DNA of 35,111 nucleotides, counting the filler, from an uncultured virus (IMG/VR IMGVR_UViG_2061766007_001136) (Duplodnaviria; Heunggongvirae; Uroviricota; Caudoviricetes). It is 3 parts of one record of this genome, joined end to end, with 100 filler letters (N's around TTAATTAATTAA, not from the genome) between each part and the next. Parts side by side here need not be neighbours in the genome. Positions count along the whole stretch, not along the records: positions 1 to 28,131 come from IMGVR_UViG_2061766007_001136; 2 more parts are not named here. One strand, 5' to 3'. A model generated the notes under the pieces. It was not told the DNA's origin and searched no databases. It saw only the letters and a program-made list of their open reading frames with translations. Below, piece by piece: positions 3,001 through 34,014 of this stretch (position 1 is the stretch's first letter; each line of letters begins with the position of its first letter). The translations under genes and the position numbers were made by a program.

Positions 3001-6000
3001 TTAGCAGAACAACAGCAGCCTAANNNNNNNNNNNNNNNNNNNNNNNNNNNNNNNNNNNATGGAAAATACTTCTGACCAAAAACGAGATGAAGCTCCTGTA
3101 AATTCTCAAACAAAACTTCTTCTTAATTCTGAACGTGCTATTTTACAAATCAGAGAGCGTTATAAAGATCATAGGGATACTGATTCTCTTGATCCTAGTG
3201 ATCAAGTTAAAGCAGGTAGACCTGATTGCTTATTAGCTTTAGATCCTGAACTTTATTTTGATACACACTTATTAGGAGCTACCCAACGTAATGCAGATTT
3301 CCTTAATATGTTAAAGATTATGAGGTTTTCACCTCATTTCTTGCATGAAACCACAGAAGGAGATCCGATTACAGATCCTATTGCCTATATTACAACTAGA
3401 CAAAATGAAGATGGTCTTAGTCAATCCTCTTTCTTAGGTAATGCTCCTCATTTCTTATTCCTTTATGATGTAGATCCTGATCATAAAGATCAACCTAAAG
3501 ATACAAATGGTAAGACAGTAGTTACACCTAAATTTTGGAAACCTAATAGATATGTATTTATGATTGTTGACTATTCTTTACGAGAATTCTTTGGTACTAC
3601 TGGTTTAGAGCAATACTTTGCCTACGGTAAAATCCCTAGCAAAGATGAAATAGCTAACATGTTTGGTCTTTCTCCTGATAGCTTATCTTTTGAACAGATA
3701 GAACAGTTACAAGGACTTATCAAAGAACATGGTATACCAAGATCTATGTTAGCTGAAACTATAGGAAGACTTATTGTAGAAAACTTAGGGTTAAGAGAAA
3801 AATTTGAAACAAGTAATCTTGATTATTATGAAAAGCTAGTAGCTGGATTTGGTGCTTTTGCAGTAGACTGGGGAGCTAAGTTTTTATTCAATGATGGTAA
3901 AAATCAAGGTTTATACGAATTAACNNNNNNNNNNNNNNNNNNNNNNNNNNNNNNNNNNNNNNNNNNNNNNNNNNNNNNNTTGCTAGCAGTGAATCTTTAG
4001 TAGTTACTAGACCTGCACCTTCTGACATTAATTTAAGTGATTTAACTACACAGTTAAATAAATTAAATAATGGTGATTTAAACGAAGAGCAGGAAGAACG
4101 TANNNNNNNNNNNNNNNNNNNNNNNNNNNNNNNNNNNNNNNNNNNNNNTGTACCTAAAGGTAAGACTACTGTTGATAATAGAAATGTTAGAGTATTTAAT
4201 GAAGCAACTGTAAAATCTATTACTAAATATGTGCTTAATGGCGATACAGGACATATTTTAAATAATAATGTTAACTGTGTTAAAGTTAAAGTTGATGCTA
4301 TAGAAACCATTCAAAGGATTAAAACTGAATTCAGAGGTTCTCTTGATGAAAAATCAGGTAGACTTAACGATGATGGTTTAAGTCAGTTAAAAGCTCCTAA
4401 GTCTAGAAGTTCTGCTAAACCTCATTGGGATAAACTTACAGTTTATGATCTTTATAATACTGCTGTTAGAAATACAGGTGGTAAAGTATTAGCTAGTCCA
4501 TTTAGAGTTCTTGCCATGCAGGAACTTTCTAATTGTGCTTATCAAGTAGATAGCGATGCTATTTCTTTCTTAAATGATGAAGTAGATGATCCTGACAATG
4601 AAGGACAAAAGATAAGATTATGGGATACTGTAGGAGCTATTCACGGATGGCAAACACAAGACGAGATAGATAGACTTAGCTATAGTGGTCAACTTAGTGC
4701 AGAAGGTGTTAATACTTCTGTTCAAAATGATATAGCTTACATTAGAGATGCTTTAGCTACACAGAATGATATGATTGCAGAAGGAACATTTAAAGGAATG
4801 TTCTTTGATTTCTTCTTAGCTAGAAATGGTCGTATCAACAATGCATCTACTACTATTAATCAGCAGAGTAGTAAGTTAGCTCGATTCATGGTTCTTCCTC
4901 AAAAAGTTTGGAGAATGTTTAATCCTAATGATGAAGAACAGATTGAATTTGAAAATTACGCTATTACTCAAGCTTTTGATACTCAAGGTGATAATAAACA
5001 GCAACTTACAGAAAGTGCTGAATTTCTAAAAAGTCTCAGTAAAGATGAATTAATCGAACTTAGAAAAAGACTTTGTATTTATACACAACCTAAATTTACG
5101 CAATGGGTTGAAGAAACTTACAAAGACAATCCTAAGTATAAACATCAGCTTAAAGTAGAAAACTTTGCTCAATGTCTTAATACTTTGGCTCACTTAATTA
5201 AAAGAGCTGATTCTAATGGTGAAGCTTTTGTTACTTCTTTAGCTGTAGAAAACGACTCTACTACATNNNNNNNNNNNNNNNNNNNNNNNNNNNNNNNNNN
5301 NNNNNNNNNNNNNNNNNNNNNNNNNNNNNNNNNNNNNNNNNNNNNNNNNNNNNNNNNNNNNNNNNNNNNNNNNNNNNNNNNNNNNNNNNNNNNNNNNNNN
5401 NNNNNNNNNNNNNNNNNNNNNNNNNNNNNNNNNNNNNNNNNNNNNNNNNNNNNNNNNNNNNNNNNNNNNNNNNNNNNNNNNNNNNNNNNNNNNNNNNNNN
5501 NNNNNNNNNNNNNNNNNNNNNNNNNNNNNNNNNNNNNNNNNNNNNNNNNNNNNNNNNNNNNNNNNNNNNNNNNNNNNNNNNNNNNNNNNNNTATGTATAA
5601 AACAGTTTCTGTAAATGTTACTGATATAATTTCTGATTTTGTTACACCTGAAGGTGAAGTTAAAAATGTAGATGCTTTAAGAAAAGTATTTTTAAAGAGT
5701 TTAGGACCTTCTTTTAAAAATCAAAGTAATGCCATCGAAAAAGCTACAGATGAACTTGTAGAAATATTTAAAATTATGTCACCTGCTTTACCTAAAGCTG
5801 TAGCAGGAGAAGTTTCTTCAGAACTTCGTACTATGATGAAANNNNNNNNNNNNNNNNNNNNNNNNNNNNNNNNNNNNNNNNNNNNNNNNNNNNNNNNNNA
5901 TTTCTTAAATCTTTATGTAGCTGCTAAAGACCAATTAAAAGTAGATGATCCTAGCAATATTACAAATACTGAATTACTAAAAAGGTATAAAGAACAAGTT

Positions 6001-9000
6001 CGTTTAGATCCTAGAGTAGCTGATTTAGCTGATAAAGATGATGCTTCTCGTGAAGCTATCATGAAAACTATTGATAAAATTGCTGAGAAGTTTGTTCCTG
6101 ATCCTAACAATCCTGAAGAAACTTTCTTAGAAGCGTTAAAAACTAGACCTTATTCTAGTATTCGTATCAAACAAGCAGGAAGATATATTACTTTAGATAC
6201 TCTTTTTAATCGTCTTATTGGTTCTACCTATGGTCAACCTGCTGCAGATACTTTAGGAAACATATTTGAGAAATTTGTTNNNNNNNNNNGACTTCTATGA
6301 TGTTTGAATTATATAATGAAGTCTATACTGAAGAATTAGAAGATCTTAGAACAACTAAAGGTAAAGTTGTTAAAAATGAGATCAAAAGTGCTGCAGTAAG
6401 AGAAATGGAAAAACGTATATCCAATATGCTTCCTTACATTACTTTACCTGATAATATTCATCGTGCAGGTGTAGATAGTTCTAAGCTTCTAATGGTTAAA
6501 TCTACTAAAAGCATGAATAAAACAAATAGAGCGCAAAACTACATGCTCGATGAAACAGGTAGACTTGTTCAAGGTACATCAGCTTATGGTGCTAGCAGAG
6601 TACCTGATAGACCTGGTAGATCTGGTGCTGTTTTAGGTATTCATGGAATGGATGGTCATATTATTTCCATGATTGCAGCTAAATATGCTAGAGAAGGTAT
6701 TGCAGTTATTCATGACGCTTATGTGTCTTCAGCGTTTGTACATGAAGAAATCAGTCACGATTATAATCAATTTCTTGTTACTGCTAACCTAAACTATAAT
6801 TTATATGGTAATGTTTTAGAGAATTTTAAACGTGTATATGACAACTATATTGAATATCGAGTTAATAAAGCTTTTGAAGAAGAATTTAATCCTGATGCTT
6901 ATCCCTCAAAACAAGNNNNNNNNNNNNNCTAAGAGAAGAAATTACTGTAGCTTTACGCAATAGATTTGTTAGAGGTGGTAATGGAGAGTATATCTATATT
7001 AATTCTAAGGATAAACTTACACTCGGTAAATTATTAGATGATTGCGTAAATACTAATGAAGAAGTTGTAGCATCTAGAAACTGGCTTATGCAGCAATATA
7101 TCATGGCTACTAATATGGATTCAGCTAGACCTCAAGGTGCTGCGTTAATTANNNNNNNNNNNNNNTTTCATGAAATTGTAAATAATGCTCATAATTGGAC
7201 TACTGCTGATATGCATGGTTCACATCCTCACGGTTTTATAACTTCTGGGATGCTTCATACTATTTATGAACAAGCATTAAACAGTACNNNNNNNNNNNNN
7301 NNNNNNNNNNNNNNNNNNNNNNNNNNNNNNNNNNNNNNATCTTAGAGATGTTAGTAGAGCTAAAGGTGAAAAAGATGTTAGTGATGAGCATTTTAAGTAT
7401 TTACAAGATATTATAAGATCCATGCCTTATGAAAAAAATACAGAAATAGTATTAAATTTGATTGACAATGGGCTGTATACTGCTGGTCAAGTNNNNNNNN
7501 NNNNNNNNNNNNNNNNNNNNNNNNNNNNNNNNNNNNNNNNNNNNNNNNNNNNNNNNNNNNNNNNNNNNNNNNNNNNNNNNNNNNNNNNNNNNNNNNNNNN
7601 NNNNNNNNNNNNNNNNNNNNTTTAAACATCGTCATGAATTTAGAATTAATAAACTTATAAATAAACTTCTTCATAATCGAGAAGAAGCTGCTAAAATTAT
7701 TACAGAAGAAGACTTTATGCCTCCTAAAGGTAGTTATGATGAATNNNNNNNNNNNNNNNNNNNNNNNNNNNNNNNNNNNNNNNNNNNNNNNNNNNNNNNN
7801 NNTAAATGAATATTGTGCATTTGTAGCTACTAATGAAGAAGTTAGAAAACGTCTTAAAGATCGTTATCCAGAAGGTAGTAATAAATATAAAGATCTTAAA
7901 TTCTTAGATAAACTTATCCAAATAGCTAAGGATATCTATGATGTAGTATTTGGACCTAAAACATTTAAAGAAGCTTATAGCAACATCTATGAAGTAATGA
8001 AAGGTAATGCTAGTATCAGGCAAAAATCTTTATTAGAAGATTTTGATACTCTTACTATGCAGATGCGTACTGTTCAAAATAAAGTTAAAAACAGACTTCT
8101 TGAACATCCTATGAGATGGTTAGAATGTTTATTTAGCATTGCTGGTCAGAGTATTAATTGGGGTGACAAACATCTTCATGATCTTCTTTATAAAATATTT
8201 AACTACTCTGATTTACATGGTGGTCCTAAATACGGCACTTATGTACAAAGTATTCCTTTGTATGCTACTACTGGACAAAAACTTAAAGAATCGTTTGATA
8301 TAGCTAAATATTTCTTTACTAGTGGTGAACAAAGAAGATATGCTAAAGCAATCTTTGCTGACACTATGAAAATTCATCAGCAAGGTATCTTTATGTCTAC
8401 ACTAAGAGATTTTCTTGGTCCTGATAAAGATACCTCTATGCTTGAAGCTTTAGGTTTAAGACTTAGATCTGTTGATAGAGCTTCTAAAGGTTTAGAAAGT
8501 GCAACATATAATGAATTAAAAGAAGCTTTTGGTAAAGAACTTAATGATTTTGAAAATGTTTCTTTAACTAATTGCTTTCTTTATACTGATTTGCAATGCT
8601 GTGCTGATTATGGATTAAAAACCATAAGAAGTTGGTTAGCAGATAATAAAACTATAGATCAAGAAATAGCTAATTTACAAAAGAATTTAGATGGTGTTTA
8701 TAATGTAAGACAACGTACATGGCTAAATAATCAAATAAATAACTTAGCTGCATTTTTAGTTTACCATGTTGGTAATCCTGGAATGAATTATAATGCAGAA
8801 AATATCGCTAAAGGATTAGGTTATCAAGGTAATATAAATGTTAATGATTCACATATAGAAATTATAGATAAACTTATTACTCTTACAGCTTTAAAGCATA
8901 CTGACCAAAACTATAGAAATGTAGTAAATAGTCTTAATGATAAAGGTTTATCTAATTTCTTAAATACACATAAAAAATTTGTAGAAGAATCTAAAAAAGG

Positions 9001-11011
9001 TATTGAAATTGAATTAGAAGATGGTAGTACAGATCGTTATCAATTTATGAGTTCTCATCAAGTTATTAAAGGTTATACTAAACAACTTACTGATCCTAAC
9101 TTGGAATTAGAAGTAGCTGTTGTAGATCCTACNNNNNNNNNNNNNNNNNNNNNNNNNNNCCAAGGATATAAACTTATAGAATCTCTTAAACCTAATGCAG
9201 TTACTAATCGTTCAGGTGTAGGTTTATATACACGATTTGGTTTACCTCTTCATACTGATGGAGCTATTGTAAGTCTTCAAGGTGTTAAAATACTTGGTCA
9301 ATCCTTGCGTAAATTAGTTTGGAATATGGCTGATGAGTATCCTGCTGTTGTACCTGATTCTAATAAGCTTTTTACAATATATAGAAATGAAGGTGATAAA
9401 CAATATATAGCTCTTAATAAACTCATGGGTGAAAAAGAATTATCTTTTGAAGATTGTGCTAAACTTCATGAAAAATATTCAGGCTACATTCCTCAGCCTA
9501 GCAGTAATTCATCTGCTATGCCTACTGACTACAATATNNNNNNNNNNNNNNNNNNNNNNNNNNNNNNNNNNNNNNNNNNNNNNNNNTTAGTAAAATGTAT
9601 GGTAGTGTTACTAGACAGATTAATGGTACTGTAGCTAATAATGTTCTTTTACAATTTTTAAGACAATCTGAAAATAATATTGTAAAAGATCATAAAGATA
9701 AAAATGGTAATCGATATATTAAATTAGAAGAAAATAGTCCTAACAAATATCTACAAAAAANNNNNNNNNNNNNNNNNNNNNNNNNNNNNNNNNNNNNNNN
9801 NNNNNNNNNNNNNNNNNNNNNNNNNNNNNNNNNNNNNNNNNNNNNNNNNNNNNNNNNNNNNNNNNNNNNNNNNNNNNNNNNNNNNNNNNNNNNNNNNNNN
9901 NNNNNNNNNNNNNNNNNNNNNNNNNNNNNNNNNNNNNNNNNNNNNNNNNNNNNNNNNNNNNNNNNNNNNNNNNNNNNNNNNNNNNNNNNNNNNNNNNNNN
10001 NNNNNNNNNNNNNNNNNNNNNNNNNNNNNNNNNNNNNTATTCAAAACTATAGCTTATTACCGTAAACAAACTATTGTTATTAGAATTCCTGGAGTTCTTA
10101 TTGGTAATATCATATCTAATTTAGCTTATAGTATCTTAAACCATAAAAATCCTTTAAAAGTATTTAAACATACACTAGCTAATGCTCAAGCNNNNNNNNN
10201 NNNNNNNNNNNNNNNNNNNNNNNNNNNNNNNNNNNNNNNNNCTTAAACGTAGGTTAGGTACAGCTACAGAAGCTGAAATAGCTAAAGCTCACAGACTTCA
10301 AGATAAGCTTAACAATAATATTGTAGCTCCTCTTATGAAAAAAGGTATGTATCAGGCTATTGTAGAAGATCTTAATCCTGATGATCTTGAATCTATTGGC
10401 GTTATTAATAAATGGGTTAAGAAAAATAAAGTTATGCAGAAGCTTCCTAATGNNNNNNNNNNNNNNNNNNTTATATGACTGAAGGTACTCCTATCTATGA
10501 TTTTATGTTTACTGCTACTCAATATTCTGATTTTATAGCTAGAGCTACTGAGTATCAGCTTTGCATGGAAAAAGTACCTAATGAATATAACGAAGCTGTT
10601 AAAGAAGGTACTTTACAGTTTAATGAAAAAACTAAAAAGCTTGAAACTAAAGATGAGTTCTTTAAAAGACGTGAACAAGAAATATCTACAGCTATTACTA
10701 ATGCATTTATTAACTATGATAAGCCACAGTCTCAAGCTGAACAATATTTAAATGACTTAGGTTTTCTTATGTTTACTAAATTTGCTAAACGTATACAGCA
10801 TGTTATAGGTAGACAATTATACTATAAACCTGTATCTGCTATTCTATTTTTACTATCTCAACATTTCTTAGTTGATACAGAAGATATTTTAGAACAAAAC
10901 GTATTTAGTAAGCACTGGTCAGCTTTAGTTCATAATCCTATAGAGAATTTCTTGAATGCTGTAGTACCTATGCCTATACAGTTTATTTTCGGTGATCAGA
11001 GAGTACTTTAG
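1..11011 (+). CDS. Giant N4-like virion-encapsidated RNA polymerase (5' partial; frame broken by N gaps, probably one gene)
   Basis: Continuous + strand coding across gaps. Single-subunit RNAP motifs in order: ARNGRINN/QSSKLAR (~4815-4885), motif A AVENDSTT (~5240-5265), motif B LRTMMK (~5825-5841), GIHGMDG and motif C IHDAY (~6637-6722). C-terminal FINYD...YLNDLGFLMF resembles N4 vRNAP C-termini. TAG at 11011 followed by a terminator. Confidence 0.85.
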
Positions 11012-11054
11012 GAAGGGAGAGCGATTGGCAGGATAATTAGGCAAGAATGATGAT

Positions 11055-11100
11055 AAAAATAGCCCCTAGAGACCGCTCCAGATCTCTAGGGGCTTTGTTT
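11055..11100. terminator. Intrinsic terminator, probably bidirectional, between convergent transcription units
   Basis: 12-bp stem AGCCCCTAGAGA/TCTCTAGGGGCT with an A-tract on the left and a T-rich tract on the right. Confidence 0.8.
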
Positions 11101-11465
11101 GGCACATCCGTCGAGGACACTTACTACATTGTGTTAAAGGGTTGTGCCATGCTTCGGGAGAGGCTGTCATCACTCAGCCTCAGACCCGAAATAGAGGGCC
11201 TAGGAGCCTCTCTGAGGCATCTCTAGGCGAAAGACGGTAGATTGTCCATGAAAGGCTCCAGAAGTGGCTTAGAATCGATCCTCGAAGCATTTTGAGGTGT
11301 AGAGCCGTTATTCGGGGATCTGATTCGTACTAGGGCTGGGAACCCATGAGGACAGCATTCCCAGCCCCTTTCCAAAATCCTGGAGATATTTATGGACGGT
11401 TCCGTTGCACTCAAGCTTCTGCGAGAGGTGTGCAGAAGTCTACACGGTTTCCTTGTAGCACTATC

Positions 11466-11541
11466 TGGCTAGAACGGAAGGAATCGAACCTTCGGATGGC
11501 AGAGTCAAAGTCTGCTGTCTTAACCACTTGACTACGTTCCA
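11466..11541 (-). tRNA. tRNA-Gln(UUG)
   Basis: Acceptor TGGAACG/CGTTCTA, anticodon arm GCAGA-CTTTGAC-TCTGC, GGTTCGATT T-loop, encoded CCA. Confidence 0.95.
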
Positions 11542-11548
11542 AGAAAAA

Positions 11549-11637
11549 TGGAGGAAGCAGAAGGATTCGAACCTTCGACAGGTAGAACCTGTGCCTGCTC
11601 TCAAGGCAGGTGCAATAGACCGCTCTGCCATGCTTCC
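11549..11637 (-). tRNA. tRNA-Ser(UGA)
   Basis: Acceptor GGAAGCA/TGCTTCC, anticodon arm CCTGC-CTTGAGA-GCAGG, long variable arm, GGTTCGAAT, CCA. Confidence 0.95.
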
Positions 11638-11639
11638 TA

Positions 11640-11714
11640 TGGAGCCGAAGACAGGACTCGAACCTGCATACGCCTGAGTACAAATCAGGAGCCTAGCTGT
11701 TAGACTACTTCGGC
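11640..11714 (-). tRNA. tRNA-Thr(UGU)
   Basis: Acceptor GCCGAAG/CTTCGGC, anticodon arm CCTGA-TTTGTAC-TCAGG, GGTTCGAGT, CCA. Confidence 0.93.
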
Positions 11715-11721
11715 ATAAAAT

Positions 11722-12260
11722 TTTAGGGAGAAAGCCATATCCGCTATGACTTTCTCCCCGATGACCTGAGCCATCCCAACAGGAGGTGTGTTGGTGAACC
11801 CGTTGTACTTAACAAGCTTGGGTAAAAATGATTCCAAAAACCCCTGCTTCTACACGGTGTACTGGTAGCTGCAGCCTAAGGTCCTCACCATGAGGATGAA
11901 AGAATCTGATCTTCTTTCAGATTTTGAGGGTTTCACAGAACTCCCTCAAACTGGGCTATTCGTTTCTCACTGCGTCCAGTGGGGCTTTTGCACTTCCGGC
12001 CTGGAAGCTGGATTCCTTGCCTCTTCAGTTGCCGTGGAATTTGACGAGGGAGTTTCTGCGATACTCCCTCATAAACGCAGCAGAGATGCCTAGGCAGTCT
12101 GCGTTCGGTCCAAGCTAGGTACCGGTACAGGTTGGACCGGATACTTTGAAATTTTGCCTAGGGATACTCCTTTTACTTGGCGGGAGTGGGAGCGGGAGCA
12201 TCCCTAGGACTTGCGTAGAGCGAGAGGGACGGCCTCTTCTCTACATGGAAGAAAGGGCTT
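11722..12260 (-). ncRNA. Candidate large structured non-coding RNA
   Basis: About 14 closely packed hairpins and no credible ORF. Several stems have G-U pairs only in the minus orientation. Lies directly upstream of tRNA-Thr. Confidence 0.65.
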
Positions 12261-12264
12261 CTGT

Positions 12265-12942
12265 CTATGCCTTCCTTCCGAAGCTTCTGCGTCCAGTGCC
12301 GGAAGGCTTCTTTTCAGCCTCCTTCTTGCCGGAACGCCTGTCCTTGAGCCATTGGGAAACGTCTTCCTCGGTAAGACCGTCCTTGTACGTCACCTTGTCA
12401 GCTATTTCAGATTCCTTTTCATACTGCTTGCCCATTTCCTCAGAGTTGTTCACAATTTCTGAAGCTGTAGCATTGTCAGTGAACCTGAAGAAGTTACGGA
12501 CAATCTTTGATTCCTGAATCTTGCCTTCATAGATCTTGTATTCAAACTGAACACGCATCTTCACAGGCATATCGTCGAATTCGGTGAGGACCATGCATTC
12601 CTTTTCCTCCCCGCCTTTGCCGATAGGGAGCATTCTTGGAGTGGGGTCTTGGATTTCCGTTCCTTCACCGAACTCTGCAATAACACAGAGCTTATTGAAG
12701 AGCTTGGCACCAAGGTTTGCAGAACCATCGTTATTAGTAAGCCTCATGGCTTGGAAAATGATCTGCTCCTGACCTTGATGCTCGAACCAGAGATTGAGGA
12801 ATTCGCTTCCGTTCTGGGTTTTATCCACAATAACGGATTTGATTACAATTTCATAAATGCCAGATTTGCTAATGTACGCACCTCCGTCACCAGAGTAGTC
12901 GCGTACAGTTTCCTCGTCAGTCTTAACTGTGAAAAAACCCAT
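12265..12942 (-). CDS. Probable phage single-stranded DNA-binding protein
   Basis: 225 aa with an SSB-like start (YISKSGIYEIVIKSV), adjacent to Sak4 and nuclease genes, AAGGAG RBS. Confidence 0.6.
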   Translation of the reverse strand: MGFFTVKTDEETVRDYSGDGGAYISKSGIYEIVIKSVIVDKTQNGSEFLNLWFEHQGQEQIIFQAMRLTNNDGSANLGAKLFNKLCVIAEFGEGTEIQDPTPRMLPIGKGGEEKECMVLTEFDDMPVKMRVQFEYKIYEGKIQESKIVRNFFRFTDNATASEIVNNSEEMGKQYEKESEIADKVTYKDGLTEEDVSQWLKDRRSGKKEAEKKPSGTGRRSFGRKA

Positions 12943-16182: not shown

Positions 16183-16394
16183 TAGCTAAATATTTTCTTT
16201 ATGAATTTCATAATACAACCATCTTTAGGTTTAGGAAGTAAACTTACTAAATAGTTATGCTGTTCCATCATCATTTTATTCATCCATATATAATTTTTTA
16301 AATGATCAGGAATAACATCTTTTTCATAAACAACGTAATCTACATTATTTACAGGTTTTATTTGTCTATCAAACACGCTTCCCAGACGTGACAT
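16182..16394 (-). CDS. Hypothetical protein (MSRLGSV...)
   Basis: GGAGG upstream of the ATG at 16394; stop overlaps the nrdG start. Confidence 0.6.
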   Translation of the reverse strand: MSRLGSVFDRQIKPVNNVDYVVYEKDVIPDHLKNYIWMNKMMMEQHNYLVSLLPKPKDGCIMKFIKKIFS

Positions 16395-17735
16395 GATAGT
16401 ACCTCCTATGTTCTTCCTGTTGTCTCTCTGTAGAAAAGTTAGATACACGTCTAAGATAACCTATGACACGAGTAGCGTAGTCAACATCCTTGCTTCCACA
16501 CTTCACACATTGGTTACGAGTTTGCTTATCTATGTAGCCACATTCATTGCAAATAGTAACCTTTACGTTAGTACAGAAGTAAGGACATCCTGTTTGTACA
16601 GCTACATCTAAGATTTTCTTAAAAGTCTGAGGAGTAGGATAATCTTCTAAGTTAAGGTGTAAAGCAGAGCCACCGTCAAGGTAACGGGTAGTAGTAAACC
16701 CATGCAGATTAAACTTATCAATAATAGTAAGAGATTCGTTTTCCACAGGATAAAAATAACTGTTATAGCAGTCACGCTTAACAACATAATTATCTTTCTT
16801 GTCCCAGTTAGCAAACTTTACTCCTAAGCTTTCTGCAGGAACACATTCAGTATTCAGCTTGATGCCATACTTCTTGCTAGTCTCTTTGTTCTGATCAGAG
16901 ATACATTTCAAAACAAAGCTTACAAAGCTAGTGTATTCTTTATTGTTGCTAGGTTCATAGCCTAGGAACTCAGCACCTTCCAACAATCCGTTAATGCCTA
17001 TAGTAGCATACTGCTTATTCAACTCTATGTAATGAGCAGAATAGGCAGGAAGCAACCCTTGTTCTTCAAATTCCTTGAAGAGCATTCTGAATCCCATTTG
17101 ATAGCAATGCATCAGCTTTATCTGAGCCTTTAGACGATACTCAAGATATGCAAAGTCAGCTTCAGAACCATTCCAAGTACCTCCATTGAGACGGAAGGTA
17201 TCTTGTATGAATCTATTAAGATTTAATGTCATGACATTAATAGAACCTGTCATGACACCACCAGCACCTAAGGAATAGCTAAAGTCATTTATCTGATCAG
17301 TAATGACATTCTTAAGTCTACAACAAGAACTAAGACTGTCTGCTGTATCAGATGAATAAATAAAGAAGCTATTCCCTTCACTGATTTCATTGCATATAAA
17401 AGATTCATAGTCTTTGTCTATAAGTTCTGTACCATCATGAAGAACAGATACTGTGACTACTGGGAAGGTTAAGAGGGCTTTTGTTCGTTCTTGATTGAAC
17501 CAATGCATAAAGTATCGTTGCAACTGGTCAAGCGATTTCCAAGTTGGTTTACTTCCATCTGGAAAGGTGAAATTTCCAAAGAGGGCATTGAAATAGTTTT
17601 CATCAAAGATGGAAATGTTCCAAAAAGGAGACTGGTAGTTACGGGCAGAGGCAGGTTGATTAAGAGCGTAGACAACTTGCTGTAGTTCTTGCTCGATAAC
17701 GCCTCTATGAGTTCTGAGATAATCTTCTCCATAAT
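16369..17735 (-). CDS. nrdD: Class III anaerobic ribonucleoside-triphosphate reductase (5' part in gap)
   Basis: TFPV, SSCCRL, VPAES, LDGGS, CNECG...CVKCG Zn site, and the TRVIGYL glycyl-radical loop. Confidence 0.95.
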
Positions 17736-18282
17736 NNNNNNNNNNNNNNNNNNNNNNNNNNNNNNNNNNNNNNNNNNNNNNNNNNNNNNNNNNNNNNNNN
17801 NNNNNNNNNNNNNNNNNNNNNNNNNNNNNNNNNNNNNNNNNNNNNNNNNNNNNNNNNNNNNNNNNNNNNNNNNNNNNNNNNNNNNNNNNNNNNNNNNNNN
17901 NNNNNNNNNNNNNNNNNNNNNNNNNNNNNNNNNNNNNNNNNNNNNNNNNNNNNNNNNNNNNNNNNNNNNNNNNNNNNNNNNNNNNNNNNNNNNNNNNNNN
18001 NNNNNNNNNNNNNNNNNNNNNNNNNNNNNNNNNNNNNNNNNNNNNNNNNNNNNNNNNNNNNNNNNNNNNNNNNNNNNNNNNNNNNNNNNNNNNNNNNNNN
18101 NNNNNNNNNNNNNNNNNNNNNNNNNNNNNNNNNNNNNNNNNNNNNNNNNNNNNNNNNNNNNNNNNNNNNNNNNNNNNNNNNNNNNNNNNNNNNNNNNNNN
18201 NNNNNNNNNNNNNNNNNNNNNNNNNNNNNNNNNNNNNNNNNNNNNNNNNNNNNNNNNNNNNNNNNNNNNNNNNNNNNNNNNN

Positions 18283-18654
18283 ACCCTTATGGATATAAGC
18301 TATCTGCATGGAGTTGTTTGTGACTATCACGCCAACATCTCCTCGATAAGTTTCATCGATAGTTCCTAGATGCACTGAAAGTCCTCGGGTAGCCAATCCG
18401 CTTCTACCTCTGACAATGCCCTCAAACCCATGTGGAATCTCCACTGCTATGCCTGTCTTAACAATTGCTGTCTCATGCGGATACAATGCTACTTCCATGT
18501 CTGCATACATATCCATGCAGGCATCATCTTTTCTAGAATACTTGAAAGGTATAGCTGTGCTAGTAAGTTTCTTAAATTTAACATCAATAGCCATAATAGT
18601 AAGATCACATAGATCTCTTCCAAGACCATGCTTTAAGCCAGCAAGAACAATCAT
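18283..18654 (-). CDS. dut: Trimeric dUTPase (3' end in gap)
   Basis: ACMDM, GRSGLA and GTIDETYRGDVGV motifs; AAGGAG RBS before 18654 (alternative start 18594). Confidence 0.9.
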
Positions 18655-22787: not shown

Positions 22788-23448
22788 TGTTCTGATCCTT
22801 TAAAATGTCTTGATAGAGTTTATAAGTAGCACAGGCATCAGTAGCTGAATACTTTATCATGTTTTCATCGTACATTTCATCCAAGGTAAAATTATCCTTG
22901 GATATAGCCCATGCACCATAAGCATATGCCATTAAAGATTTTAATCTTACATCATTCTTAAACTGATTAGCATCATTAAGAATACATTTAGCTAGCAGCA
23001 TAGTATCTACATAATTCTTAGGCAGGCTACCTGTATTCCAAAGAATATGTTTAAAGTCAAATGTAGCATTATGCCATAGCTGTTTTTTATTTGTACTAAC
23101 TAAAAAGTTACAAACTAATTCTCTCATAGTATTATTAGAACAAATAATTACTTTAGCTTCATGATCAGACCAACCTATGCTTAAATGAGTTACAAGAGTA
23201 AGACTAGGATGCGATAAGCCATCAGCTTCTAACCATTGAAGTAGTTCACGTCTTTGTTCAAAATGCTTATCATCTTCTGGTATAAGATTAAGTTTTAGTT
23301 TTAATAAATCTTGCCATTCTTTCGATGAAAACCTGCTAGCTGTTTCAAAATCTGCAGCAAAGAGATCAGGCAGATCTCCTAGCCATTGGCTANNNNNNNN
23401 NNNNNNNNNNNNNNNNNNNNNNNNNNNNNNNNNCTTGCCTACGTCCAA
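22774..23448 (-). CDS. polA: Family A DNA polymerase, stand-alone 3'-5' exonuclease fragment (start uncertain)
   Basis: ExoI ADFETA, ExoII HNATFD, ExoIII YSATDA; stops shortly after ExoIII. Confidence 0.85.
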   Translation of the reverse strand: MDVGKXXXXXXXXXXXXXXSQWLGDLPDLFAADFETASRFSSKEWQDLLKLKLNLIPEDDKHFEQRRELLQWLEADGLSHPSLTLVTHLSIGWSDHEAKVIICSNNTMRELVCNFLVSTNKKQLWHNATFDFKHILWNTGSLPKNYVDTMLLAKCILNDANQFKNDVRLKSLMAYAYGAWAISKDNFTLDEMYDENMIKYSATDACATYKLYQDILKDQNNAIN

Positions 23449-23565
23449 AAGAAGCCCCCTAGAAGCCCTTCTGAGGGCTTTGAATCGATTTTACGATGAA
23501 TCTACCGTCAGACCCTTCAAATGCCTTAGAATGGCTCCTAGGGGCCTTATTTGGCGTATGGGTAT

Positions 23566-24069
23566 TTATGGATGGNNNNNNNNNNNNNNNNNNNNNTAGA
23601 AGCTTCCGAGAATGTTGTCATTGAGATATGTTTCATCTTCAAGAACCTGATGGAAGAATAAAGCTTCAGCTTCACGGTAAGTAAGTTGATACTTATTGTA
23701 AGCATAGTCCAGTATTTCACGAACTACAGGAACTCTAATCTTACACTGTTTAGAGCTTCCACAATAAGTTTTCCAATCAGACTCTATTTTAACTATATCG
23801 TATTTCTGTCTATAGCCTTTACCAGTATTTTTATAGATAATATCTACAGTATTTGGATGAGGCTTACCATCCATTCTAGCTTTAATAGTACGAGTACCAT
23901 AAATATTCTTTTTACCTATGTATTTCGTACCATCCACAAATTGGATACGGTAGATAAAACCATAAGCACCTTCAGGCATATCTTCAATGTTATTAATGAT
24001 TTTCACTGAAGGGTGCTTGGCATCTATGTTTTCTGATTCAGTCCAATCAGGCAATGACTTATTATTCAT
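23566..24069 (-). CDS. GIY-YIG nuclease, T4 endonuclease II-like
   Basis: YGFIY...KYIGKK, ESDWKTYCGSS, YLNDNI. Confidence 0.8.
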   Translation of the reverse strand: MNNKSLPDWTESENIDAKHPSVKIINNIEDMPEGAYGFIYRIQFVDGTKYIGKKNIYGTRTIKARMDGKPHPNTVDIIYKNTGKGYRQKYDIVKIESDWKTYCGSSKQCKIRVPVVREILDYAYNKYQLTYREAEALFFHQVLEDETYLNDNILGSFXXXXXXXXHP

Positions 24070-25032: not shown

Positions 25033-27681
25033 CTAGCCGAAATGCCATCTGTCAATCTGTCGGATCATTGCATCCAAATCTTTTTCTGGGAGACTTTTGA
25101 CCCAGTAGTCTGAGATATCTCTGACAAGCTTCTGAGCATACTCCTTGGTACATCCTAGCTCTTGAGCATACCTAGCTGCCCAGATGAGCCTTCTTCTCCC
25201 CTGTCCATCAGGAGCATCGAAGGCTCTCTGAAAAGTAGTGAAGGGATCATCGAGCATGGAAGAGCATTCCTTTCTGCTAGGCTCCTTCTTAGCTTTGCGA
25301 CTAATAGAATCGGATATTTTATCTAAATAGGGCTTTGTAGCTAATGGATTAGCATCAAGGGTCTTTAAGATAGTTCTTCCAGAATAGCTGAAGAAAATTT
25401 GAGATTTAGCTACATTGTCTATGATTAGACCTAAGTCTTCAGCAATGGTCCTAGTAAACATCTGCCATTGATTGTCAGGAATATCTATCTCTGCATCTAA
25501 TTCAAGAATTACTCTGAATTTATGAGGATTGTCCTTATTGCTAGTTCTAACAATGAAATGATTGATTTCTGTAAGCATAATATGTGCTTCAGTATCAGTT
25601 ATTTCACTGGTATCGATATCTAGAACTATCCACTTGCAGGGACTACAGATATTTTCCTTGCCTCTGACACCATTGAGAAATTTGAAAGGACTATACGCGT
25701 AGTCTCCTTCAAGCATTTCTTCCAAATCTGCAAATTCAAGCTCTTCACATTCATAGCCAGAAGCACATCTAGCACCTCTTTGCTGTTTAGTTCCTGATAC
25801 TGGAAGAAAACTAAGAAGTATCTTATCTGTTTTAACTATTTCAGTGAAATAGATAATATCCTTATCTAACCTATAAGTACCATTCTGATCATACGAATTA
25901 ACTAGCTTTACCAGTTCCTTCATATGAGTATCAGACTGTCCTTTAATAGGTATGAATCCTGCCTTTCTTAAGGCATGAAGATTCATGCTGTATGCACCTT
26001 TCAAAGCTGACTTGTGAACATAGTCTGCAAAGAGTTCATAAGGTTCTTTGACTAGTTCCTTTTCAAAGAAAAGAACATCATCATTAATTAGTTCTACAAA
26101 CTCAGTAGCTGCTCTATAGTGATCTAGCTCTATTTCATCATAGCCTTGTATCAAAGCTAAGGCACCAGACAGCTTTAAAGCTTTCCACTGAAGATGTGTA
26201 CGAGTAAGTTTAGTTATAGGAAACTNNNNNNNNNNCTTCCAGATACAGGAAGAAAGCTAAGAAGTATTTTATCTGTCTTAGCTATTTCAGTGAAATAGAT
26301 AACATCTTTATCTAGTCTATAAGTACCATTCTGATCATACGAGTTAACTAGCTTTACTAATTCTCTCATGTGAGTATCAGACTGTCCTTTAAGAGGTACA
26401 AATCCTGCTTTACGCAAAGCATGTAAACTCATGCTATATGTACCTTTAATAGCAGACTTATGAACATAATCAGTGAAAAGTTCATAAGGTTCTTTAACTA
26501 ATTCTTTTTCAAAGAAAAGAACATCATCATTTATTAATTCTACAAATTCTACTGCAGCTCTATAATGGTCTAATTCTATTTTATCATAGCCTTGTATTAA
26601 AGCTAAGGCACCAGACAACTTTAAAGCTTTCCACTGGAGATGAGTGCGTGTAAGTTTAGTTATAGGAAACTGATTATCGATTGTAGCAGAAACTGCTTCA
26701 TTGTATCTTTTATAAAGACCAAATAAATCTCTTACTTCTTCAGAAACTTTAATCGTAGTATTCTTTTTCTTTAAGAGGTCAGGAGTAAGCTCTTCTATAT
26801 ACTCAGATACTTCTTTACGGTTTTCTACTGCCCTATCTTCAATGACTCTCTCAGCTTTGAGCATTTCTTGAATAGAACCGTATTCAGAGGACATAATATC
26901 TTCGTACACAAACACAAAGAAACTTCGTCTAGCCAGCTTTGTAGTAAATTCTGTTTTGAATTTCTTCTTNNNNNNNNNNNNNNNNTTGAGAGCCAATAAA
27001 CAATGCAGATACTGGTAGATTTTTAATTTCTTTAGACTGAGTTTCTCTAGTCTTGATAATTTTGACTTCTTTAGAACCTTCGTCATATAGTTCAGAAATA
27101 AGTTTTATACATTCTGTAAGGTTAATATTGGTGGCCAGTTCAGCTCCAACTTCGCCAGAAAAAATATACCCAGCACCAAGTCCATCATCAGATAAATCAT
27201 TAAGATGCTGGATGAATCCTTCAGCAGTCGAAATAGCTGCGAATAAAGGATTAGGGCTAACATAGTAGTCCTTATATACAGCAAACTTGTCAGGTACGTC
27301 ACAACCTGCCTCCGTTGCCTTTTCTATAGCTCTATTTACAGCTATATCTTGACGAACATAGTTAAGACGATCATAGCCTACTTGAAAGCATTTTCTAGCA
27401 GCTCTAAGAGAACTGTCTTTAGAAGCACCAGATTTAGCTATGCAGAACATTATGCTGTTTATCGGGATGATACTCCCATTCCAGTGTTCGATATTAATCC
27501 TGAACTGGCTAACGAACAGCATTATTTCTGACATGGCTAAGGCAATCTTCATCCTTTGAGGAATAGTCTGTGATGGTATGCTGTCGGCTACAGCTTTCAC
27601 TATCTCAGGCATATTCCCTTCAAAGAGATTCAGCTTGTTAATCTCCTTCTCCAGCATGTCCATCATAGACATATCAATCAC
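25033..27681 (-). CDS. Helicase-primase: N-terminal DUF3987-like P-loop domain, C-terminal AEP-like primase with helical tail (contains an assembly duplication)
   Basis: Walker A IAKSGASKDS, TAEG, SELYD; then WIVLDID, RTS..NPHKFRVIL, GRRRLIWAARY. 26236-26665 repeats ~25797-26225 as a strain variant. Confidence 0.7.
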
Positions 27682-28531: not shown

Positions 28532-28572
28532 AATAAAAAAGGGATTCACCCAGCTTAGCTGAATGAATCCCT
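28532..28572 (-). terminator. Intrinsic terminator downstream of thyX
   Basis: GGGATTCA/TGAATCCC stem with a U-tract on the minus strand. Confidence 0.7.
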
Positions 28573-28670
28573 GAAAACCGTTGGTACTGCTCAATTTTGC
28601 TCCAGGATGGCTTCTGAGGGCCTTCCAGAGCAGAGACGACTAATCTATCGCCTCACCCCTCGGATACGCC

Positions 28671-29366
28671 TTAGAAGGCATCCTCGCGCATTCTGAAGGG
28701 TCTTCCGCATGACCTCTTCTCGGGACATGGACCATAGGCGCATGGAGGTCTGCAGAGGTCGTATACTTCAGGAAGTCTCTGTTTGAGGGTTTCCTTCATC
28801 TTAGAGAATAGTTCTCTGATTTCCCATTGAGCTTTGCTGCAGAGACGTTTCCTAGATGCTTCTACGAAGCTTCTAGCATTCATAGTAACCATGATATTAG
28901 TCTTACAGGCATTAGGGAGAATGAACCTAGCATCTTCTTTTTTAAGTCCATAGATGTCTACGAACTTATCATACATTCTAGCTATTTGATCCATTAAATT
29001 AAAATAATCAATCATAGCTTCTTTGTTTTCTTCAAAGGAAGAAGGTACTATGTACCATTCTCTGTCCATAGTGCCTATTTTACAGTATCTTTGACTACAT
29101 TGGGCATAGCTAGCCAGACGATGCCTAACTAACTGATGACTACAAGCTCTAGATATGCCTTCTACATACCATGAAAGAGATATAGGTTCTAGAATACCTA
29201 AATGACCAGAATCTATAGCTGTATGCATACCTTTTACAGTATCGTGTTCTTTTTGAGAAATACGTTTATGTGCAAGATAGCATGTATCTATTTCATGATT
29301 AACGCAGACAGCAGCAGCTAATTCTGCAAGACCTATTGTAGGATTTGAGACTAAAGTAACTTCCAT
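28671..29366 (-). CDS. thyX: Flavin-dependent thymidylate synthase
   Basis: GHLGILE, ISRACSHQLVRHRLASYAQCSQRY, EDARFILP, AQWEIR. Confidence 0.95.
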   Translation of the reverse strand: MEVTLVSNPTIGLAELAAAVCVNHEIDTCYLAHKRISQKEHDTVKGMHTAIDSGHLGILEPISLSWYVEGISRACSHQLVRHRLASYAQCSQRYCKIGTMDREWYIVPSSFEENKEAMIDYFNLMDQIARMYDKFVDIYGLKKEDARFILPNACKTNIMVTMNARSFVEASRKRLCSKAQWEIRELFSKMKETLKQRLPEVYDLCRPPCAYGPCPEKRSCGRPFRMREDAF

Positions 29367-29960
29367 TACTAGTCATCGTCTCCTTCAGTATCTTCTTTAA
29401 GAGGCTTATCAGGAGTTACAACCATGATGGTAATTTTATCAACAGTAGTAGCTGTATTGTTATTTTTAAAAGTAACATTANNNNNNNNNNNNNNNNNNNN
29501 NNNGGCATCTGTTGAGCTAAAAGATGAAGAAGTTCCTGTTTAAATTCAGGAATGGTTAATTCGACAGTAGTTTTCATAATTGTCTCCTAGACATTAATAA
29601 TGACTTTGAAAGAGTGAAAAGGAACAGGTTCACTGTCCTCTGTGAGCTTTACGGTAATAGAAATATTTTCTTTACTGATATTAGATGAAGGAGCATTAGT
29701 CTTAANNNNNNNNNNNNNNNNNNNNNNNNNNNNNNNNNNNNNNNAATAGAAGATTCATTACGCATCTTCTTTCTCCTTTAAAAATAAATTTGAACCAAGC
29801 TTTGGAAGTATGCTCAGTTTTTAAAAAATTTGCAACTAGTCAAAGTCATCATCGTCATCATTATCAGTATAAGCTACACTACCAAAAAGTAATAATGTAA
29901 ATAATAAAATGATTAATGGTATTCCAACTACTACGAATAAACCTACTAAAAATATCTGTA

Positions 29961-31675: not shown

Positions 31676-32365
31676 TAGAATGGCATTTCTTTTGTCTCAC
31701 CAATCGGTTCATGCTTATCTTTCTTTTTCTTCTTAGAAAATTCAACGAAATCTATATTATTAGGATAAATAATAGTTTCGTTCTTAAACCATCTAGTACA
31801 CCTTTTAACAAACTTAGCTAGTTCTCCTTCGTACATCCACTTATATGGAATACGCAGAATATCGTTTGTAGGAAATTTTTCTGGTCTAGGAGTAACTCTA
31901 ATGTCGTATCTAGTAGGATACTCTCTAGCTCTTTTCTTAGCTAAATTCAGAGCAATATTTTTAGAAAATATGTCTTTATCANNNNNNNNNNNNNNNNNNN
32001 NNNNNNNNNNNNNNNTTAAAATTTTTTCTGCATACATACATCCACATTTCTTATGACAATTCTTTTTAAAATCAAATTTATTAATATACTGATAAATAGC
32101 TTGCTTTTCATATGGAAAGNNNNNNNNNNNNNNNNNNNNNNNNNNNNNNNNNNNNNNNNNNNNNNNNNNNNNNNNNNNNNNNNNNNNNNNNNNNNNNNNN
32201 NNNNNNNNNNNNNNNNNNNNNNNNNNNNNNNNNNNNNNNNNNNNNNNNNNNNNNNNNNNNNNNNNNNNNNNNNNNNNNNNNNNNNNNNNNNNNNNNNNNN
32301 NNNNNAAGAACTCTAGAAGAACCATGCTTAAATTTAACATATGCACGGTAGAAATATTGATTCAT
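31675..32365 (-). CDS. Hypothetical protein(s), gapped
   Basis: AAGGAG RBS before 32365; coding on both sides of the gaps; may be two genes. Confidence 0.45.
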
Positions 32366-32397
32366 TATTTTACTCCTTTATCTATTAGATAATAAAC

Positions 32398-32439
32398 AAA
32401 AAATAAAAGCTCTTACCCCTAAAAAGGGATAAGAGCTTT
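32398..32439 (-). terminator. Terminator-like hairpin
   Basis: AAAGCTCTTA/TAAGAGCTTT stem with a minus-strand U-tract. Confidence 0.6.
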
Positions 32440-32469
32440 CATATAAGGAGAAAACATTCATGCGAAATG

Positions 32470-32500
32470 TCTTTTATCCTCACCATTCGGATACTGTCAA
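32470..32500 (-). promoter_or_regulatory. Possible sigma70-type promoter
   Basis: Perfect TTGACA at 32500-32495, but only a weak -10 (GATAAA/TAAAAG). Confidence 0.3.
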
Positions 32501-32501
32501 G

Positions 32502-32552
32502 AAAAAAATAAAGGGGTATATGACATCTCTTTCGAGACATCATATACCCCTT
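32502..32552 (-). terminator. Intrinsic terminator of the RNAP gene
   Basis: 13-bp stem AAGGGGTATATGA/TCATATACCCCTT with a U-tract, about 15 nt after the stop. Confidence 0.8.
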
Positions 32553-32566
32553 AAATATGCTATAAA

Positions 32567-34014
32567 TTATTTAAGACAATAACCTGAAAATTTATCTACT
32601 TCAGGTTCTTTATTAAATTTAAACTTTTCAGTTATTCCTATACTATCAAAGTAGCTTAGAAGAATACTGTGTCTATTATGATAAATTTCTTCCATTTTCT
32701 GTACATAAGCTTTACGACACTTAGCTACATCATTTGGATGTAGTGTAAAAGCATCGTGGTTAGGAAGAATCCAATCAAGCTGTAAACATACATGATTAGC
32801 TACTTGACTGTCTAAATTNNNNNNNNNNNNNNNNNNNNNNNNNNNNNNNNNNNNNNCTGCTGAGTATCTGGTACCATAGCAACTTCTCTTGTTATTTTCT
32901 TAAGTTTTGACTGTGCAGTATGATAGACAAAGTATTCTACACGTTTTTGTTCTTGCCACTTAAATCGATTGCACTCTATATTAAACTCCTCATTAAATAT
33001 TTTTACTCTCATTTTCGTTTTTGGATTAACATTATTAATAATGAAATCCTTAAAACGATTAGCTTNNNNNNNNNNNNNNNNNNNNNNNNNNNNNAGCATT
33101 AAGCATAGGTTGAGTATATTCAAGCTTGTTATGATCCCACAAATCCTTAGGTTTCTTAGAACTCCCATAAAGCATGGGAGTTAAAGCTTTCTTGACGTGC
33201 AGTCTGGAACAGTAATCAACCGTCCAGATGTCACCAAAGATTTCAGGATTGATGAGATTAGTTTGGTCAAGATATGTATGATTATTTAATAATACTCCTA
33301 TCATTTGAATTTGACTAGCCAATGCATCTATTTCTATTGGAACAGTCCATTCTTCAGGATGTTCTAAATTTTCATAGATACGTTCACACCAAATCCTTTC
33401 ATGTAAATCTTCGATGCTAGGGAGATTTCTTTCTTTGTATTGTCTATAACCAAAGCTAGCTTTATCCTCTGCATTTTGTCCTCTATAGCCAAATAATTCG
33501 GCTATAGCCATATATACAGAGGCAAAGTCATGAAGAGGTGCAGGAGCAGTTTTAAGAACTGCCCTTGCTTCCTTTGAACTTACAGGATTGAACACCTTTT
33601 TCGAGCATTGGAATATTGCTCTTCCTCTACTATCGATTATGCAGTTTCCTAAAGTATAATTAGCATTATCAATAGCGTACCAATCCGTTAAGTCAGACAG
33701 TATTTCTTGATATGTTATTTCTCTAGTAGAACCTGCTAATCCTTTCATAAGGTTTTCTGCTATTTTATCACGATACTTAAGAATATACTTAGTATCGTAA
33801 CTAAACTTGCAATTTCCTGCTTTCATAAATCCTTTACGAATTAGTCCAGTGGGAATATGCTTCCCATTAATCTGGACAATATCAGATAACTTAGATTTAG
33901 TATAAGTCATACGATACTTATTAAACTTATACCTATACATTACAGAAATAAGTTCATCTTTAGAAACCCATTTTAGAAGTTTTTCAGGATTTAAAGATAC
34001 GTTTGCATAGTTCT
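32567..34014 (-). CDS. Compact T7-like single-subunit RNA polymerase (5' partial, gapped)
   Basis: DSRGR, motif A IEIDALASQIQ, motif B RLHVKKALTPMLYGS, motif C LPNHDAF; ends FSGYCLK*. Confidence 0.88.

Follow-up and report, generated by a model that had tools for sequence, protein, structure and literature searches.

The sequence considered here is a window of 35,111 nucleotides (nt), filler included, from an uncultured virus of the Caudoviricetes (IMG/VR IMGVR_UViG_2061766007_001136). Its region of interest lies between the gene for the single-strand DNA-binding protein (SSB) and the gene for the virion RNA polymerase (vRNAP). The two genes converge, and the locus that fills their junction (11012-12264, 1.25 kb) is non-coding. 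The SSB gene (12265..12942, minus strand; DUF669, N4-type; Pfam PF05037; phrog_743, E 5e-21; 182 homologues) is the final protein gene of a minus-strand operon. Three tRNA genes interrupt the locus and, like all neighbouring genes to its right, they are located on the minus strand. The initial annotation proposed a candidate large RNA of ~540 nt in the gap between the SSB gene and the tRNAs. This gap comprises 550 nt in the window, from the SSB stop to the first tRNA (11715-12264), and is best described as the less conserved 5' part of the 1.25-kb non-coding locus, which runs on the minus strand from 12264 to 11012.

On the opposite side the locus is bordered by the 3' end of the vRNAP gene (10475..11011, plus strand; phrog_2206, profile positions 3260-3401 of 3406). 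This gene is represented by pieces, the plus-strand open reading frames (ORFs) 7736-9634 and 10475-11011, the second of which reaches the gene end at 11011 according to phrog_2206. The ORFs look fragmented because runs of N interrupt the gene; such runs are present at several places of the window, including 9700-10000 and the vicinity of 23431 and 23576. Since the plus-strand ORFs match the virion RNA polymerase family phrog_2206, the phage is N4-like; it is a phage of the cattle rumen. The public runs containing the stretch are cattle-gut metagenomes.

Protein coding is ruled out for 11715-12264. Each of the six frames contains 5-11 stops of mixed kinds, so that no frame is open under the standard code or after reassignment of any single stop, and the long non-coding gap described initially was borne out. 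A plus-strand mini-ORF following AGGAGG was rejected as well, being non-conserved and having its spacing off by 5 nt in one relative (L063, see below). Short ORFs past the tRNAs (11223-11414 on the minus strand and 11047-11226 on the plus strand) lose their frame in relatives and in a DNA contig of run X3. The picture of an otherwise tightly packed genome did not hold, because further ORF-free gaps of 0.4-0.6 kb occur, for example, at 29367-29960 and 32347-32811.

Relatives, folding and covariation of the 5' domain

No DNA match was obtained among 50,697 phage records. Cultured phages were matched by protein, and these were Alteromonas phages only (37-41% identity). In IMG/VR a close SSB relative was not found; the 62 distant SSB loci (identity of at most 64%) have no DNA similarity to the 5' domain, and the 15 of them that were inspected possess neither a tRNA nor a long gap downstream of the SSB gene. 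Motif scans of IMG/VR gave 0, 33 (all low-scoring) and 0 matches, and the scan of species genomes gave 4 matches, which is the chance level. A metagenome collection provided 21 loci, including four (L063-L066) with an SSB 88-96% identical to that of the window. In these four, the SSB stop and the first tRNA are separated by 527 nt (L063), 514 nt (L064), 440 nt (L065) and 552 nt (L066). Metagenome relatives at 60-67% identity have a gap of just 110-170 nt with a plain terminator. The family now comprises five sequences from cattle-gut material, and the region is likely a new, lineage-restricted structured RNA locus.

Between these phages, 31-42% of the third codon positions in the SSB gene are different, so unconstrained DNA should hardly align at all. 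The outer parts of the 5' domain do align, with 69-72% identity to the relatives at 12264-12037 and 65-80% at 11874-11715. In the middle, identity is 63-74% across just 19-70% coverage, and this part is replaced, shortened or expanded in relatives. In a 75-kb DNA contig of run X3, the 116 nt between 11921 and 12038 are swapped for 76 other letters, and mosaic breakpoints recur near 12037 and 11921.

The structure of 11715-12264 exceeds chance. Its minimum free energy (MFE) is -200 kcal/mol versus -163 +/- 7 kcal/mol for dinucleotide shuffles, giving z of -5.3 (minus strand) and -5.0 (plus strand), while two 550-nt coding controls from the same window gave -2.6 and -2.3. This agrees with the initial annotation, as does the fact that all ten stems it listed fold as hairpins where it had placed them; the four longest inverted repeats (I2, I3, I4 and I11) were also recovered mechanically. 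By sub-region, z is -5.0 at 12264-12037 and -5.0 (sense) versus -2.7 (antisense) at 11874-11715. For six coding controls of 162 nt, z lies between +1.0 and -2.7. Among the relatives, z of -6.2 and -3.4 was obtained for L063 and L066, respectively.

Covariation was assessed on a MAFFT alignment of the five sequences (the window and L063-L066) with an RNAalifold structure of 87 pairs, 500 column shuffles and six slid controls. Paired cells amount to 89.3% versus 84.0 +/- 0.9% in the shuffles (0/500 as high). Both sides are changed in 17 pairs versus 10.7 +/- 2.2 in the shuffles (1/500) and 2-8 in the slid controls; the covariation score is 0.272 versus 0.180 and 0.07-0.13, respectively. The compensatory changes among homologues that had been suggested as a check are thus present, and, as judged from the alignment, several hairpins are conserved through them. 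The consensus fold is a run of local hairpins. Long-range helices (13 candidates in the 5' domain and 46 between the domains) are almost all without covariation, a comparison in which five sequences have little power. These results support conserved local hairpins and not a compact multi-junction fold. The single discrete ornate RNA of ~540 nt envisaged initially was not supported by this comparison: its hairpins are local, supported long-range covariation is missing and its middle third is swapped or deleted in relatives.

On the minus strand the 5' domain begins with hairpin P0 (12247..12279), a conserved element enclosing the SSB stop codon (12265-12267) in its loop; helix 1 of the consensus has 10 pairs here, 7 of them invariant, with 96% of cells paired. 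Hairpin H1 (12215..12244, consensus helices 2 and 3) has an invariant CCGUC loop. Hairpin H2 (12157..12208, inverted repeat I4, helix 5) has a CCUAGGG base, a stem of 14 bp and a loop whose length varies. Compensatory changes in H2 of relatives include U-A to C-G and G-C to A-U, and ~100-120 additional letters are found at the H2 site in the X3 DNA contig and in an RNA-library contig of run X15. A conserved single-stranded linker of the CAAAAUUUCAAAG type (12143..12156, alignment columns 125-141) leads to hairpin H3 (12106..12139, inverted repeat I11), for which the alignment reveals a basal stem of lineage-specific sequence and a conserved GUAC-rich tip.

Hairpin H4 (12074..12105) has the palindrome CCUAGG (12089-12094) at its tip in 5/5 sequences, and 2 pairs of its helix 7 are changed on both sides. 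Hairpin H5, or module Y (12036..12079), has a basal helix of GUUU...AAAU, above which a covarying stem bears the conserved loop UCGCAGAAAC. Its covariance model (R2) matches 5/5 sequences at 57-70 bits. The stem is GAGGG/CCCUC in the window, UAGGG/CCCUA in L063 and L065, and GGAGG/CCUCC in L064 and L066, with the UCGCAGAAAC loop constant. The variable middle (11875..12035), replaced or deleted in relatives, contains the hairpins 11966-11983, 11923-11950 (H6), 11903-11923 and 11882-11896; the H6 stem exists as GAGGG/CCCUC, CACGG/CCGUG and CAUGG/CCAUG. A motif had been proposed initially as shared by H5 (12046-12070) and H6. The likeness is visible by eye and is not recovered by the H5 covariance model at E <= 10, where second copies are detected in L063 (24.8 bits), L065 (16.0 bits) and L066 (10.8 bits), with none in the window or L064.

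Next follows module X copy 1 (11788..11872), composed of GCUAC..ACCGUGUAG, a variable hairpin, GURCAACGG and a conserved closing helix. It is positioned ahead of H9, H10 and the tRNAs. The module X pattern occurs twice in the window (11800-11858 and 11402-11448) versus 0 occurrences expected. Its covariance model (R1) scores eight copies at 69-82 bits, and foreign loci picked by the pattern reach at most 27.6 bits. Copy 1 is present in 5/5 sequences; copy 2 is found in the window, L063 and L066.

Hairpin H9 (11776..11794) displays ACCUCCUGU, a motif found in all five sequences with differing pairing registers. We take ACCUCCUGU to resemble the anti-Shine-Dalgarno sequence. The loops at 11776-11794 and 11420-11435 show CACCUCCU and ACACCUCUC, which presumably resemble the anti-Shine-Dalgarno end of 16S rRNA. 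Ribosome-binding sites of the AGGAG type are present at several phage genes. The domain is closed by hairpin H10 with a U-rich tail (11715..11759), which is terminator-like and ends 11 nt ahead of tRNA-Thr. Three pairs of its helix 12 are changed on both sides, and its stem exists in two unrelated sequence versions among relatives.

The tRNA cluster and the 3' domain

The cluster (11466..11714, minus strand) comprises tRNA-Thr(UGU), tRNA-Ser(UGA) and tRNA-Gln(UUG), which were called by ARAGORN and scored 55-64 bits with the Rfam tRNA model. The size of the tRNA set differs among relatives from 1 to 3 genes. In L065 a weak tRNA match (1279-1346, 31.6 bits), uncalled by ARAGORN, appears to be a fusion of a tRNA-Thr 5' part and a tRNA-Ser 3' part.

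Module X copy 2 (11390..11462, minus strand, 74 bits; also in L063 and L066) starts a few nt past the CCA end of tRNA-Gln. Module X, which flanks the tRNA cluster on both sides, could mark processing sites or cassette borders. In its position copy 2 is similar to theta ribozymes, which are of the hepatitis delta virus (HDV)-like type, with a nested double-pseudoknot fold and a catalytic C, and, according to PMC10879173, lie in gut phages no more than 5 nt to either side of tRNA 3' ends. Only 4.5% of the theta-associated tRNAs encode CCA (PMC10879173), whereas the present tRNA-Gln does encode it, and module X copy 1 is not beside a tRNA end. The theta-ribozyme reading of copy 2 was rejected: no Rfam ribozyme matched at E <= 10, and an HDV-type arrangement could not be threaded by eye.

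The 3' domain continues on the minus strand with a proximal part (11251..11389) of variable hairpins at 59-75% identity. One of its stems covaries between GGGAA/UUCCC and GGAGA/UCUCC (helix 4, with 4 pairs changed on both sides). The distal part (11095..11250) is the best conserved; it begins with the hairpin GCCUC-AGA-GAGGC followed by UCCUAGG, and its helices 7-13 are 100% paired. A strong intrinsic terminator (11051..11094), formed by a 14-bp stem and a U-tract, closes the minus-strand unit in 4/4 sequences reaching that far. The boundaries assigned initially were accordingly too narrow, as the locus runs past the tRNAs to this terminator, placed at 11061-11094 by the terminator scan, and has its best conserved part there. 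The distal block with the terminator (11055-11250) is 90-95% identical in L063, L064 and L066, above both the SSB coding sequence (83-88%) and the vRNAP C-terminus (69-84%). In the 3' domain alignment 96.5% of cells are paired, and 6 pairs are changed on both sides versus 3.4 in shuffles (23/500) and 0-3 in slid controls; the folding z of this domain is -6.4.

The block 11055-11250 is a candidate small RNA of ~145-190 nt, situated outside the coordinates flagged initially. The tRNA cluster of phage T4 contains stable non-tRNA RNAs of ~120-140 nt, which are co-transcribed and processed with the tRNAs. The present locus would be comparable to them in giving non-tRNA RNAs together with phage tRNAs, with the RNA sizes differing.

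Known RNA families and possible hairpin-type promoters

Comparison with Rfam 15 at the gathering score recognized the three tRNAs only. At E <= 10, the 2-kb region, the 591-nt region alone and the four relatives gave noise-level microRNA-type matches only. ROOL and GOLLD were unmatched at E <= 10 in the window and the four relatives, the ROOL model (RF03087; 574 positions, cut-off 99.1 bits) being applied without a positive control. Neither ARAGORN nor Rfam found a tRNA, a tmRNA or an RNase P RNA in 11715-12264; just the three flanking tRNAs were detected. The comparison with these families, which the initial annotation had left to be made, therefore ended without a match.

A single giant ornate RNA of the ROOL/GOLLD kind would constitute a new class, in which the 5' domain, the tRNA linker and the 3' domain fold together and perhaps self-assemble; an RNA-only multimeric cage is a mark of both GOLLD and ROOL. 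The setting speaks in its favor. ROOL RNAs have a mean length of 581 nt, were first derived from cow rumen metagenomes and are often located near tRNAs and in prophages, as stated in PMC5737381. The present locus, with ~0.55 kb of phage sequence 11 nt from tRNA-Thr in cattle gut/rumen material, is alike in these properties. It differs from ROOL in that the ROOL covariance model is not matched and only tandem hairpins are supported.

GOLLD is described in bioRxiv 2024.12.08.627333 as having a less conserved 5' region, a linker sometimes with tRNAs and a universally conserved 3' region. The present phage locus near a tRNA island shows a GOLLD-like gradient (5' part 69-72%, tRNAs 86-96%, distal 3' part 90-95%), which is an analogy of layout only. 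The difference from GOLLD is again the lack of an Rfam match; in addition, the present locus is split by a terminator-like hairpin and joint folding of its parts is unsupported. The palindromic CCUAGG at the H4 tip (5/5) could support loop-loop contacts in such an RNA. Against it stand the absence of ROOL/GOLLD matches, the consensus made of local hairpins with almost no covarying long-range candidates, the swapping, insertion or loss of entire hairpins among close relatives, and the terminator-like hairpin between the two domains. A single giant RNA of this type is, therefore, quite improbable. Still less credence is given to the whole 1.25 kb being a third kind of giant phage tRNA-island RNA, sequence-unrelated to ROOL and GOLLD, with parts that fold or assemble together. 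Its 5' domain would evolve fast, its linker would hold the phage's tRNAs between the two copies of conserved module X, and its 3' domain would be strongly conserved. Assembly might then be realized, e.g., via the palindromic CCUAGG loops, and contact with the translation machinery via the anti-Shine-Dalgarno-like loops.

A comparison by gene order is offered by the N4-like Pseudomonas phage LUZ7. Its order includes the SSB gene (gp65), small ORFs and the convergent vRNAP gene (gp73), with a gap of ~400 nt within that interval. This gap (L122 14645-15042) has z of -6.15 and several long perfect hairpins. It corresponds to the gap between orf69 and orf70, which is extensively transcribed late in infection and yields three non-coding RNAs (sRNA1-3) shorter than 250 nt, two of them sharing a start with alternative terminators and one being processed (PMC9163698). 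A non-coding, strongly folding gap in the same SSB-to-vRNAP interval is thus common to both phages. LUZ7 differs in lacking sequence similarity to the present locus (best blastn E 1.6, outside the gap) and module X, in having no tRNAs in this stretch, and in the four further small ORFs between its SSB gene and its gap.

In N4-like phages, single-stranded DNA extrudes hairpins from which early and middle transcription is initiated, and the stems could therefore be promoter or origin elements acting at the DNA level instead of RNA structure. According to PMC9163698, the early promoters of LUZ7 are hairpins with a 3-nt loop on at least 4 bp of stem and a start 13-14 nt downstream of the hairpin centre, and its middle promoters are hairpins whose stem is GC-rich and at least 6 bp long, with a loop of 3-4 nt. 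Similar elements are repeated in the present genome. The 3' domain profile matches the intergenic gaps 23440-23567 (E 7e-12 and 4e-10) and 28561-28703 (E 2e-6 and 2e-3), each on both strands. It also matches an intergenic gap in four IMG/VR relatives (L002, L003, L005 and L057, at ~720-850). The elements in both gaps and in the IMG/VR relatives are imperfect inverted repeats resembling 11180-11330 of the window. Their common core, in which UCCUAGG follows a GC-rich hairpin of 5 bp and a 3-4-nt loop, is exact at 11199-11213 (minus), 23458-23472 (minus) and 23528-23542 (plus). The minus-strand copy 23458-23472 is directly upstream of an ORF starting at 23448. The intergenic repeat elements may be N4-type hairpin promoters.

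In the CCUAGG of the 3' domain, the G residues are located 12-13 nt beyond the loop centre, so the distal block could be an RNA of ~145 nt with its own hairpin-type start and terminator. This layout is shared by the hairpin 11882-11896 (6 bp, 3-nt loop) and the CCUUAGG behind it, a pair that immediately precedes module X copy 1 and is restricted to the window and L064. The likeness to N4-like hairpin promoters (a GC-rich short stem, a 3-4-nt loop and a G ~12-14 nt downstream) thus concerns ~11215-11227 and 11882-11896. Most stems of the flagged gap differ from them in being much longer, with large loops.

These repeats, and pair statistics that are strand-neutral, favor DNA-level hairpins. The geometry of the promoters, however, with a stem of 4-7 bp, a 3-4-nt loop and a start 13-15 nt downstream, fits only 2/10 of the stems listed initially besides the 11215-11227 hairpin, and this is a fit of geometry only; the rest have stems of 10-14 bp and loops of 5-24 nt. 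Both H10 and the last hairpin are followed by U-tracts, which as RNA signals are specific to one strand, and on the opposite strand the invariant G.U pairs of modules X and Y would turn into A.C mismatches. Origins of replication are usually AT-rich. The GC content of the locus is 0.47-0.55 versus 0.41-0.48 in the coding flanks, which fits a structured RNA better, and an origin is unlikely in this GC-rich locus without iterons. On balance, DNA-level hairpins are an unlikely explanation for the stems as a whole.

Probable transcription and organization of the locus

The orientation proposed initially, with the RNA directed as the tRNAs, was retained, and the argument from G-U pairs by which it had been reached does not generalize. 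G-U pairs had been stated to occur solely on the minus strand. Minus-strand G.U pairs are indeed present in stems 11726, 12106 and 12157 and absent from stem 12046, and plus-strand G.U pairs are found in stems 11966, 12157 (extended) and 12215. In conserved helices, sense-only G.U pairs occur at alignment columns 210-247 (5/5 sequences), 79-117 (3/5) and 507-554 (U.G, 2/5). In the 3' helices 5 and 7-13, all 6 one-sided changes yield a G.U on the sense strand.

The terminator-like ends are found on the sense strand. H10 is terminator-like on this strand only, in 4/5 sequences (the window, L064, L065 and L066); in L063 its loop is 11 nt, which is beyond the limits of the terminator scan. The locus is also present in RNA libraries, since contigs from 3 studies span 12038-12331. 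No RNA-library contig covers 11566-12037 or 11055-11417 (3 RNA runs), contig cover being uninformative either way. Matches on tRNA-Gln continue into unlike sequence and derive from other organisms.

The reading tentatively preferred, with slightly less than even confidence, is a transcribed, modular tRNA island flanked by structured RNA, which gives rise to several RNA species rather than one ornate RNA. Several results weigh against it. The alifold energies (-63.2 versus -61.6 kcal/mol) show no strand preference, and single mismatches are strand-neutral in number, with 13 G.U versus 11 A.C over 9 sequences (5 of the 5' domain and 4 of the 3' domain). A promoter-like site was not found on the minus strand in the scan. 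The RNA-library contigs span the SSB coding sequence too, and DNA carry-over is possible. The five aligned sequences represent ~3 independent lineages, and the consensus structure comes from this very alignment. The kept fraction of window MFE pairs is 0.36-0.38 versus 0.38-0.55 in slid controls of the MAFFT alignment, partly because variable parts are misaligned. The middle (12036-11875) has z of -0.6, i.e., it is unstructured in the window. Identity of the 5' domain over all columns (56-66%) is near the ~60-70% expected from third positions, and farther relatives of the phage lack the whole locus.

Several of these properties would be expected of a functionless, fast-evolving and recombination-prone spacer that arrived with the tRNA genes and whose hairpins are leftover terminators and chance structure. 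Such a spacer would account for the overall near-neutral divergence, the mosaic content with breakpoints near 12037 and 11921, the unstructured middle third, the window MFE pairs that are not preferentially kept, and the farther relatives with just a 110-170-nt gap and a terminator. It does not account for islands within the region that are conserved far beyond the neutral level, nor for stems that stay paired despite sequence change. The gap length is 514-552 nt in 4 sequences, z is well past the coding controls in 3 phages, and conservation of the adjoining 3' block exceeds that of the flanking genes. A functionless spacer is, consequently, regarded as improbable.

For the modular tRNA island, the transcript boundaries, processing and function in trans that we infer are as follows. 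Transcription from the SSB operon, or from a start inside the locus, would proceed through P0, H1-H5, the dispensable linker, module X and H9. The transcript could halt at the terminator-like H10 or continue into the tRNAs. In the latter case an RNase P cut at tRNA-Thr, 11 nt past H10, would release an RNA of ~0.5 kb with a hairpin-protected 3' end. Beyond the tRNAs, the second module X would be followed by the highly conserved RNA of ~150-190 nt ending at the strong terminator. The conserved hairpins would set the transcript ends and the release of tRNAs, and they may act in trans. They are most likely recognition and stability elements for proteins or RNases, because their loops are constant while the stems covary.

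ROOL and GOLLD, located beside phage tRNA islands, are among the least understood bacterial RNAs, and few such classes are known. The present locus occupies the same setting with no detectable homology to them, in N4-like phages for which LUZ7 provides small RNAs from the same interval. If the hairpin modules are processing or binding sites, the locus would show a phage packaging tRNAs and non-coding RNAs in one transcription unit. Should its parts fold jointly, the locus would represent a giant RNA of a new class.

Two further observations concern protein genes elsewhere in the window. A single ORF (16369-18654) fuses a dUTPase domain with an anaerobic ribonucleotide reductase (NrdD) domain. 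Each of the adjacent ORFs 25033-26154 and 26214-27086 corresponds to a separate portion of the DNA primase family phrog_2135, and this pair is either a split gene or pieces separated by a frameshift.

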